DNA from: an uncultured bacterium
Lineage (GTDB): Bacteria; Patescibacteriota; Minisyncoccia; UBA6257; 2-01-FULL-56-20
Direction: 5' to 3'
Assembly (NCBI GenBank): GCA_963807165.1
Contig: CAWDZM010000001.1
Coordinates: 577,471 to 641,470 of the forward strand
Length of the DNA: 64,000 nt
In this document: in pieces, positions 26,680 to 27,560 of the stretch
Position numbering within the stretch: the stretch's first letter is position 1
How the letters are laid out: each line of letters opens with the position of its first letter
The notes under the pieces: model-generated
Seen by the model: only the letters and a program-made list of their open reading frames with translations
The model's database searches: none
What the model was told of the DNA's origin: nothing
Program-made: the position numbers and the translations under genes

Positions 26680-27560
26680 TTACGATTGCCTTATTTGCCT
26701 GCTGGGGGGGAAAAAAAAAAAAAAAAAAAAAAAAAAAAATTTTTTTTTTGGCGGGCGTGGTGTCGGCGGCATCGGCGGTGCGGGTGGCTTTGGAATTTGC
26801 ATCGGCGTTGGCGTAGGGCTAGAGATCGGCGCGGGTGCGGCGGGAGTTATTTGCACAACATTCCTCGGTCCGGCACTTGCCGTTGGCATAGAAGAAAGCG
26901 ACGCTCTAAAATTTCCATATTGCGGCACCTGCGCGCCCGGTGTCGGCGGCTTCGGCGCTGCCGGTGTAATAGTGTTTGGAGTCGGTGGTGGCTACTTCTC
27001 GCTCCCCCAAATTCCAACACCGCCGGTCGCAACGGCGCCTGCGTTTTCTTTTGATCAATCGTCATTTCAGCCGAGCCTCCCGGCTTTGAAAGCGTAAAGC
27101 CCGCATTTTTTTCTGGAGCTTTAAAAGTCGTGTCCTCGTGGAGCATCATCGGCGCCGGTTCAGCTGGTGCCGCGGGTGCTGCCGCTGGTTTTGGTGTTGG
27201 CGCGGGCGTTGGCATTGGTACTGATGTCGGGATAGAAGCAGGGCGTGGGGTTGGGATAGAAACTGAAGTGGTGGGCGGCATTTTTGACCAGCCGACGTCG
27301 GAGAGGGTGGTGGGTTTTACGATGGAAGGAGTGGGCATCGCTGGCTTTACGGCAATATTCTCAATAATAGGATTTTTTATTTTTTCCTCATTAGGGAGTG
27401 GGGCGTATAATTTATCTAAATCAGATTGTATTGGGTTAAATATGCGAGTGTTAAAAGAATCAAATAAAGCCTTGCTTATAGATAGGGAAAGACCCGTTTT
27501 TTTACTTATTTTTTCAGGGAGTTCTTCTCCGTGGATAAATCCCCAAAAGGACAGACCCAA
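26680..27560 (-). CDS. Pro/Thr/Ala-rich protein, apparently with a -1 frameshift near 26985-27010, with its C-terminus running into the homopolymer tract (KKKF10PP...)
   Basis: Frame a: MGLSFWGF...PTPAPTPKPAAAPAAPAEPAP...LEFGG. Frame b continues PPPTPNTITPAAPKPPTPG...PPMPPTPRPPKKK. Confidence 0.4.
26703..26749. repeat. extreme homopolymer tract G8-A29-T10
   Basis: 26703-26710 G8, 26711-26739 A29, 26740-26749 T10. It lies at the 3' end of the Pro-rich gene and ~65 nt upstream of the PrgI-like gene. Confidence 0.9.

Follow-up and report, generated by a model that had tools for sequence, protein, structure and literature searches.

Contingency tracts, as described in Neisseria, Haemophilus, Campylobacter and Mycoplasma, are single-nucleotide runs, usually shorter than 20 nt. 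Their place is either the 5' coding region or the promoter spacer, and their length varies between strains and between reads. UP elements have a canonical position of -40 to -60. It is acknowledged that a long-read MAG is a chimeric consensus of a population, platform errors included (PMC8012365), and polishers are known for overcorrections and haplotype-switch errors (PMC12016036). A literature search for polisher artefacts gave general statements only, and no description of a G/A/T homopolymer filler of the form seen here was found.

The DNA analysed here is a stretch of 64,000 nt (the window). On its + strand it reads ...CCTGCT, followed by G7 (26704-26710), A29 (26711-26739) and T10 (26740-26749), and then GGCGGGCG..., as read in the deposited sequence. 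Together these runs form a composite homopolymer tract, G7-A29-T10, at 26704..26749 (no strand assigned). The coding (minus) strand version is A10-T29-C7. An earlier note on this DNA had found the site correctly but counted eight G from 26703; base 26703 is T, and the run begins at 26704 with G7. Likewise, the A10-T29 part of its minus-strand reading stood, and C8 is to be read as C7. Its view that the tract is exceptional was borne out. By our arithmetic, A29 is expected by chance ~1e-13 times at 25% A, and all homopolymers elsewhere in the 64 kb are <=10 nt, with just one other A run of 10. We also considered the A:T hairpin that had been suggested. Pairing is possible, but the structure is weak (MFE -10 kcal/mol, z-score -2.6), flanking G:C pairs supply part of it, and the centroid is unstructured. 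Rfam and tRNA scans gave no match at or near the tract, and a promoter and terminator scan of 26300-27300 gave no element involving it. The IMG/VR viral contigs were scanned for a G5-A(>=20)-T8 composite with 0 matches, so there was no sign of the tract as a recurrent technical sequence. At a distance from the tract, ARAGORN called a tRNA-Ile with the anticodon TAT (UAU) at 48348-48420 (+), which Rfam confirmed as a tRNA. A tRNA-Ile(UAU) is uncommon in bacteria, where AUA is mostly decoded by a lysidine-modified CAU tRNA.

The minus strand of the window bears a T4SS-like cluster with PrgI-family, TraC-like and VirB4/TraG-P-loop ATPase genes; PKD-domain and membrane proteins and a Pro-rich protein are encoded upstream in the cluster. 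The PrgI-family gene (26117..26638, minus; 173 aa) is the first in the downstream half of the cluster, and its protein is identical in the two sibling contigs described below. Downstream of it, within 23635..26102, follow the TraC-like gene (25392-26102, minus) and the VirB4/TraG-P-loop ATPase gene (23635-25371, minus). A VirB4-like function is split here between a TraC-like N-terminal protein of 230-236 aa and a 578-aa ATPase. The split also occurs in contig_20112, and contig_20111 likewise has a separate TraC-like gene; because the sibling contigs show it too, the split looks genuine and not an error. Among species-representative genomes, the PrgI protein has its closest relatives in Paceibacteria/Parcubacteria (CPR) MAGs, several of which are Microflora Danica long-read MAGs. 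The Pro-rich gene (26666..27882, minus; 5' end approximate) lies directly upstream of the PrgI-like gene, and a Pfam search with the intact Pro-rich proteins gave no family. Exactly 65 nt separate the tract from the PrgI ATG at 26638, in agreement with the distance of about 65 nt given earlier.

The exact PrgI protein was found on three contigs: a 726-kb contig of 726,381 nt, which is presumably the source of the window, contig_20111 (10,390 nt) and contig_20112 (9,321 nt). The latter two are short contigs of the ENA assembly ERZ25039472. The identity of the PrgI protein on all three contigs and the coincident bubble ends point to the same assembly for the 726-kb contig. Contig_20111 and contig_20112 share both ends, at window ~34172 and ~23926, and therefore behave like alternative branches of one assembly-graph bubble. 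Both span this strain-variable segment (23926..34172, no strand assigned) from end to end. The window is a mosaic of the two, being contig_20111-like from 34171 to ~27320 and of the contig_20112 type from there to 23925. From 34171 to ~30250, its identity to contig_20111 is 93-99.6%; from 30250 to 27500, the match is noisy (80-95%). From 27320 to 23925, the window equals contig_20112 apart from 5 mismatches and three length differences. The upstream halves of the two haplotypes differ in gene content. Contig_20112 is without the Fic/RhuM gene (window 32974-33996), and its upstream cassette encodes an 824-aa PKD protein, a 591-aa protein and a 334-aa DnaJ-domain protein, with ~70-82% DNA identity to the window or no alignment. 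The PrgI/TraC/VirB4 half is common to both haplotypes. We read this arrangement as the replacement of cassettes between strains, upstream of a secretion core that is conserved.

A three-way alignment of the window with the sibling contigs was used to examine the tract. In contig_20112, ...CGCCCGCCA is followed directly by CAGCAG... at the tract site (the junction can also be given as CGCCCGCCA/CAGCAGGC or CGCCCGCCA/CAGCAGGCAAATAAGGCAATCGTAAAAGATTTCCTTTAA). Compared with this contig, the window is 44 bases longer here, and the additional bases (26705..26748, minus) read A9 T29 C6 on the minus strand. Contig_20111 has, at exactly the site of these 44 bases, a 66-nt in-frame insertion that encodes QAPQAPQTFQSSQTPKPQTQPP; no other difference between the haplotypes is as large within the clean part of the segment. 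The flanks of the tract are 100% identical to contig_20112, for >600 nt in one flank and for ~1.1 kb in the other, and there is no haplotype switch at the tract between contig_20111 and contig_20112. Two further bases, G 26992 and A 26986 (26986..26992, minus), are absent from contig_20112 and appear spurious; their joint effect is a frameshift in the Pro-rich gene. Contig_20111 is longer at both of these single-base sites, by GTGCGTCC and A, and the window copies the first or only base. From 27320 to 25621, the window thereby differs from contig_20112 by indels only, three in number. Of the 5 mismatches to contig_20112, 3 take the contig_20111 base. The haplotypes have 14 indel sites in ~3.4 kb. 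By our rough estimate, the probability that all three window-specific indels fall on such sites by chance is ~2e-6. Since the window-specific indels sit at contig_20111 indel sites and copy its bases, they indicate a consensus made from mixed strain reads and not mutation. The window agrees fully with contig_20112 at each of the remaining 11 haplotype indel sites of the clean stretch, indicating that mixing does not always give a hybrid. The T10 run at 25617-25626, which is A10 in the coding direction and specifies GGKKKED within the TraC-like gene, has an equal length in contig_20112, so this 10-nt run is probably genuine, unlike the tract under study.

The effect of the tract on the Pro-rich gene was then considered. 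The gene is intact in both sibling contigs, with 447 aa in contig_20111 and 348 aa in contig_20112, where the intact ORF ends in PRPPQQANKAIVKDFL and the stop (in a longer form, ...PPTPRPPQQANKAIVKDFL and the stop). In the window, the gene is interrupted and spread over at least three reading frames, and the intact protein maps to three different frames. The true stop is the TAA at 26668-26666, 11 codons past the tract. The conserved C-terminus, QQANKAIVKDFL and the stop, is unbroken in the window and is encoded by 26704-26669 (the last 12 codons with the stop, 26704-26666). The earlier note had read the minus strand as ..PRPPKKKFFFFFFFFFFPP.., which is a correct translation of the ORF at 26680-26928 (minus; ..PRPPKKKFFFFFFFFFFPP.. 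and, at its end, ..PRPPKKKFFFFFFFFFFPPSRQIRQS with the stop). However, the poly-Phe peptide, which the note took for the C-terminal end of the Pro-rich protein, is an out-of-frame reading, because the 44-nt insertion shifts the frame; the true frame ends ...QQANKAIVKDFL at TAA 26668-26666. A location between the Pro-rich gene and the operon, as given in the note, was also wrong: the gene continues through the tract site and ends 11 codons on. A change in the frame of the Pro-rich ORF, which had been proposed as a check, was indeed found, as the 44 inserted bases shift it. This frameshift removes a C-terminal motif that was present in 19 of the 19 other alleles with a recognisable gene end.

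These alleles came from three sources. The first was 12 species-representative Paceibacteria loci (L003-L007 and L009-L015), several from Illumina assemblies; the second was five independent metagenome contigs (L085-L089); and the third was the sibling contigs (L083 and L084). All 17 relatives have a similar C-terminal motif at the end of the Pro-rich gene, which reads IVKDFL at the stop in 13 of them (15 of 19 alleles when both sibling contigs are counted). The variants in other alleles are IQKDFL, IVKDFI, IVKNFP, IVQNFTE and IVKNFSQ. The distance from the Pro-rich stop to the PrgI ATG is 27-67 nt in the closer relatives, and the stop abuts or overlaps the ATG in the two most distant ones, L014 and L015. 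No homopolymer, whether a tract or a short precursor, was found at this site in the 17 relatives or the two sibling haplotypes. All runs were shorter than 12 nt throughout 82 related loci (476,873 nt), and shorter than 10 nt throughout the five metagenome contigs. A comparison of tract length among relatives, which had been proposed earlier, therefore met with an absent tract and no length series. The Pro/Gln-rich linker does differ in length between alleles; it is always in frame and of ordinary sequence. As an observation in its own right, the Pro-rich proteins are variable in length and sequence, yet most of the 19 alleles share the C-terminal motif (N/A)K(P/A)IVKDFL (window 26669-26704, minus). 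The motif matched no family in Pfam. It may serve the CPR T4SS-like system as a conserved tag for interaction or sorting.

The quality of the sequence around the tract was uneven. ORFs are fragmented in a noisy consensus stretch (27500..30250, minus), where identity to contig_20111 is 80-95% with dense indels of 1-2 nt in non-homopolymer contexts. The ORF map of ~26650-30440 consists of many short overlapping ORFs in different frames, which is abnormal for a bacterial genome, and the contig_20111 proteins keep shifting frame when placed on the noisy stretch. We counted mismatches to contig_20111 by codon position. The counts were 30/35/44 in the noisy stretch, with 40 gap columns in 1 kb, as compared with 0/0/20 in PrgI and 7/13/87 in VirB4 for the clean genes. 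The third-position mismatches in PrgI and VirB4 are those that real divergence under purifying selection would leave. The stretch 27500-30250 looks like an unpolished or mixed-strain consensus, and gene calls there are thus unreliable. Outside the bubble, a UvrD/PcrA-like helicase gene (34843-36772, minus) is split into two overlapping ORFs near 35725 by a single-base frameshift, between ...EAEWIAQT and YSLRERDKDADIGILYRTNAQSRAIEQ...; this is probably another consensus indel error.

Taken together, we consider it very probable, on comparison of the sequences, that the tract is not a real feature but a consensus or polishing artefact of long-read metagenome assembly at a strain indel. Three findings are of the kind expected from an artefact. 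First, the tract is absent from a sibling sequence, contig_20112, whose flanks are otherwise identical. In addition, it coincides with a haplotype polymorphism and is accompanied by hybrid states. Finally, its consequence, the breaking of a conserved ORF, is biologically implausible. The artefact would be an insertion-type consensus error at the strain indel. The earlier note had listed an assembly or chimera artefact among its candidates. An artefact is what we favour; a mis-join is not, as the flanks are colinear with contig_20112. As a candidate of its own, a mis-join was rejected, the flanks being colinear in contig_20112 and in the relatives and the tract showing no haplotype switch.

The artefact most probably arose as follows. 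The sample contained two or more strain haplotypes of the T4SS-like surface-protein locus of this Paceibacteria (CPR) bacterium. Two short alternative contigs were put out for them by the assembler, together with a 726-kb contig built from the mixed read pile. At the Pro/Gln-rich tail, reads with 0 nt and reads with 66 nt would have been piled on the same draft, and the consensus step would have produced a low-complexity filler of intermediate length, 44 nt, A9T29C6 on the coding strand. The naming of the contigs and the relatives of the locus point to the Microflora Danica project as the origin of the window. The MAG pipeline of that project was Nanopore-only metaFlye with one Medaka round (PMC12313526). 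Because the contig_N names, the Microflora Danica MAG relatives and the uneven sequence quality all fit this pipeline, we infer that the data were Nanopore reads, assembled with metaFlye and polished with one round of Medaka, and that the filler arose in consensus or polishing. The 11 other indel sites that are clean, and the literature search that found no filler of this exact form, are part of the main residual doubt.

The alternative that survives best, although we regard it as unlikely, is a real and very recent strain-specific insertion. A third strain would then carry the 44-nt homopolymer at an indel-prone position of the Pro/Gln-rich linker; the C-terminus of its Pro-rich protein would be inactivated and the gene would be a pseudogene. 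This fits with the variable length of the site among natural alleles, and the disruption of the upstream half of the cluster could likewise be taken to mean that the module as a whole is decaying. However, a third strain would have to share the identical contig_20112 flanks and to differ only by indels that sit at the sites of the other haplotype and borrow its bases. Moreover, T29 has no template in either haplotype, and 44 nt is out of frame and costs a C-terminal motif that 19 of the 19 other alleles keep. A related and somewhat less probable version, to which we give little credence, is that the tract is real in a minority strain, as an untemplated composite insertion in the Pro/Gln-rich tail of a T4SS-associated surface protein, where indels arise frequently. 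If this were true, no longer homopolymeric contingency tract would be known, and the insertion would turn off the conserved C-terminal motif and perhaps modulate the adjacent leaderless-type PrgI promoter.

A slipped-strand phase-variation tract that toggles the Pro-rich ORF or the expression of the PrgI/T4SS-like operon, the switch put forward in the earlier note, is very improbable. A long homopolymer does adjoin surface and secretion genes here, 65 nt upstream of the PrgI ATG. Nevertheless, the 17 relatives and both sibling haplotypes lack the tract, any precursor and any length series, and three different homopolymers cannot be explained by the expansion of a single repeat. The position is also against a switch. 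The tract stands at the 3' end of the gene, 11 codons before the stop and not in the 5' coding region, and at least 52 nt upstream of the TACAAT box, outside a -35/-10 spacer. Furthermore, the downstream genes are identical with or without the tract.

The TACAAT box (26646..26651, minus) is conserved. Its distance from the PrgI ATG downstream is 7 nt in the window and 7-9 nt in 18 aligned alleles. It is likely to be the real -10 of the PrgI operon promoter and to be unaffected by the tract; the consensus promoter scan of the window did not flag it. The whole spacer between the Pro-rich and PrgI genes (26639-26668, minus) is highly conserved in L003-L013 and L083-L089, with an invariant TTACAAT 7-9 nt before the ATG. 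A small GC-rich palindrome precedes TTACAAT, and the longer spacer variants have a TAGCAA/TGGCAA/TGGTAA hexamer 17 nt upstream. The spacer is similar to a promoter of the sigma-70 type, and a PrgI transcript made from it would be leaderless or nearly so. On the coding strand, the AT-rich tract is found upstream of this -10-like box, in keeping with the earlier proposal of a poly-T/poly-A UP element or DNA-bending element, which would boost the PrgI operon promoter. We find such a role scarcely credible. With 66-111 nt between it and the PrgI ATG, the tract lies farther upstream than -40 to -60; it occurs only in the window, although the promoter-like region is conserved in 18 alleles; and it destroys conserved coding sequence. 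Both the position and the lack of conservation in relatives thus speak against the proposal. Equally hard to credit is a scar of a poly(A)-tailed retro-transposed element, as also put forward before, or a chimeric mis-join of unrelated DNA, since apart from the poly(A) run itself the 44-nt insert is pure homopolymer with no cargo and no target-site duplication, and both flanks are colinear in contig_20112 and all relatives, so that nothing foreign is joined at the tract.

If the consensus artefact is the right reading, a striking oddity in a deposited long-read MAG marks the spot where strains were blended, and the lesson is one of data quality. For this contig, gene calls, pseudogene counts and scans for a 'contingency locus' are unreliable at 23926-34172, given the broken genes and the many frameshifts there. 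The underlying biology is modest: coexisting strains of Paceibacteria differ by whole cassettes of genes and by in-frame indels in a Pro-rich protein encoded upstream of the conserved PrgI/TraC/VirB4 module, which is ordinary strain-level variation of surface and secretion loci.

The tract can be set against three known systems. Like the contingency loci of host-adapted bacteria, it is a homopolymer beside surface and secretion genes, but it is composed of three different runs, stands at the 3' end of a gene and has no counterpart in any of the relatives. Like UP elements and A-tract bending sequences, it is AT-rich DNA upstream of a promoter-like TACAAT box, but it lies at about -66 to -111, is unconserved and interrupts coding sequence. 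The usual footprint of long-read consensus errors at strain indels is indels of 1-2 nt or haplotype switches, whereas here a 44-nt filler of three homopolymers was found. In other respects the locus is like them: the window equals one haplotype except where the other has insertions, from which bases are borrowed; the alternative bubble contigs come from one assembly; and a frameshift-rich stretch lies nearby.
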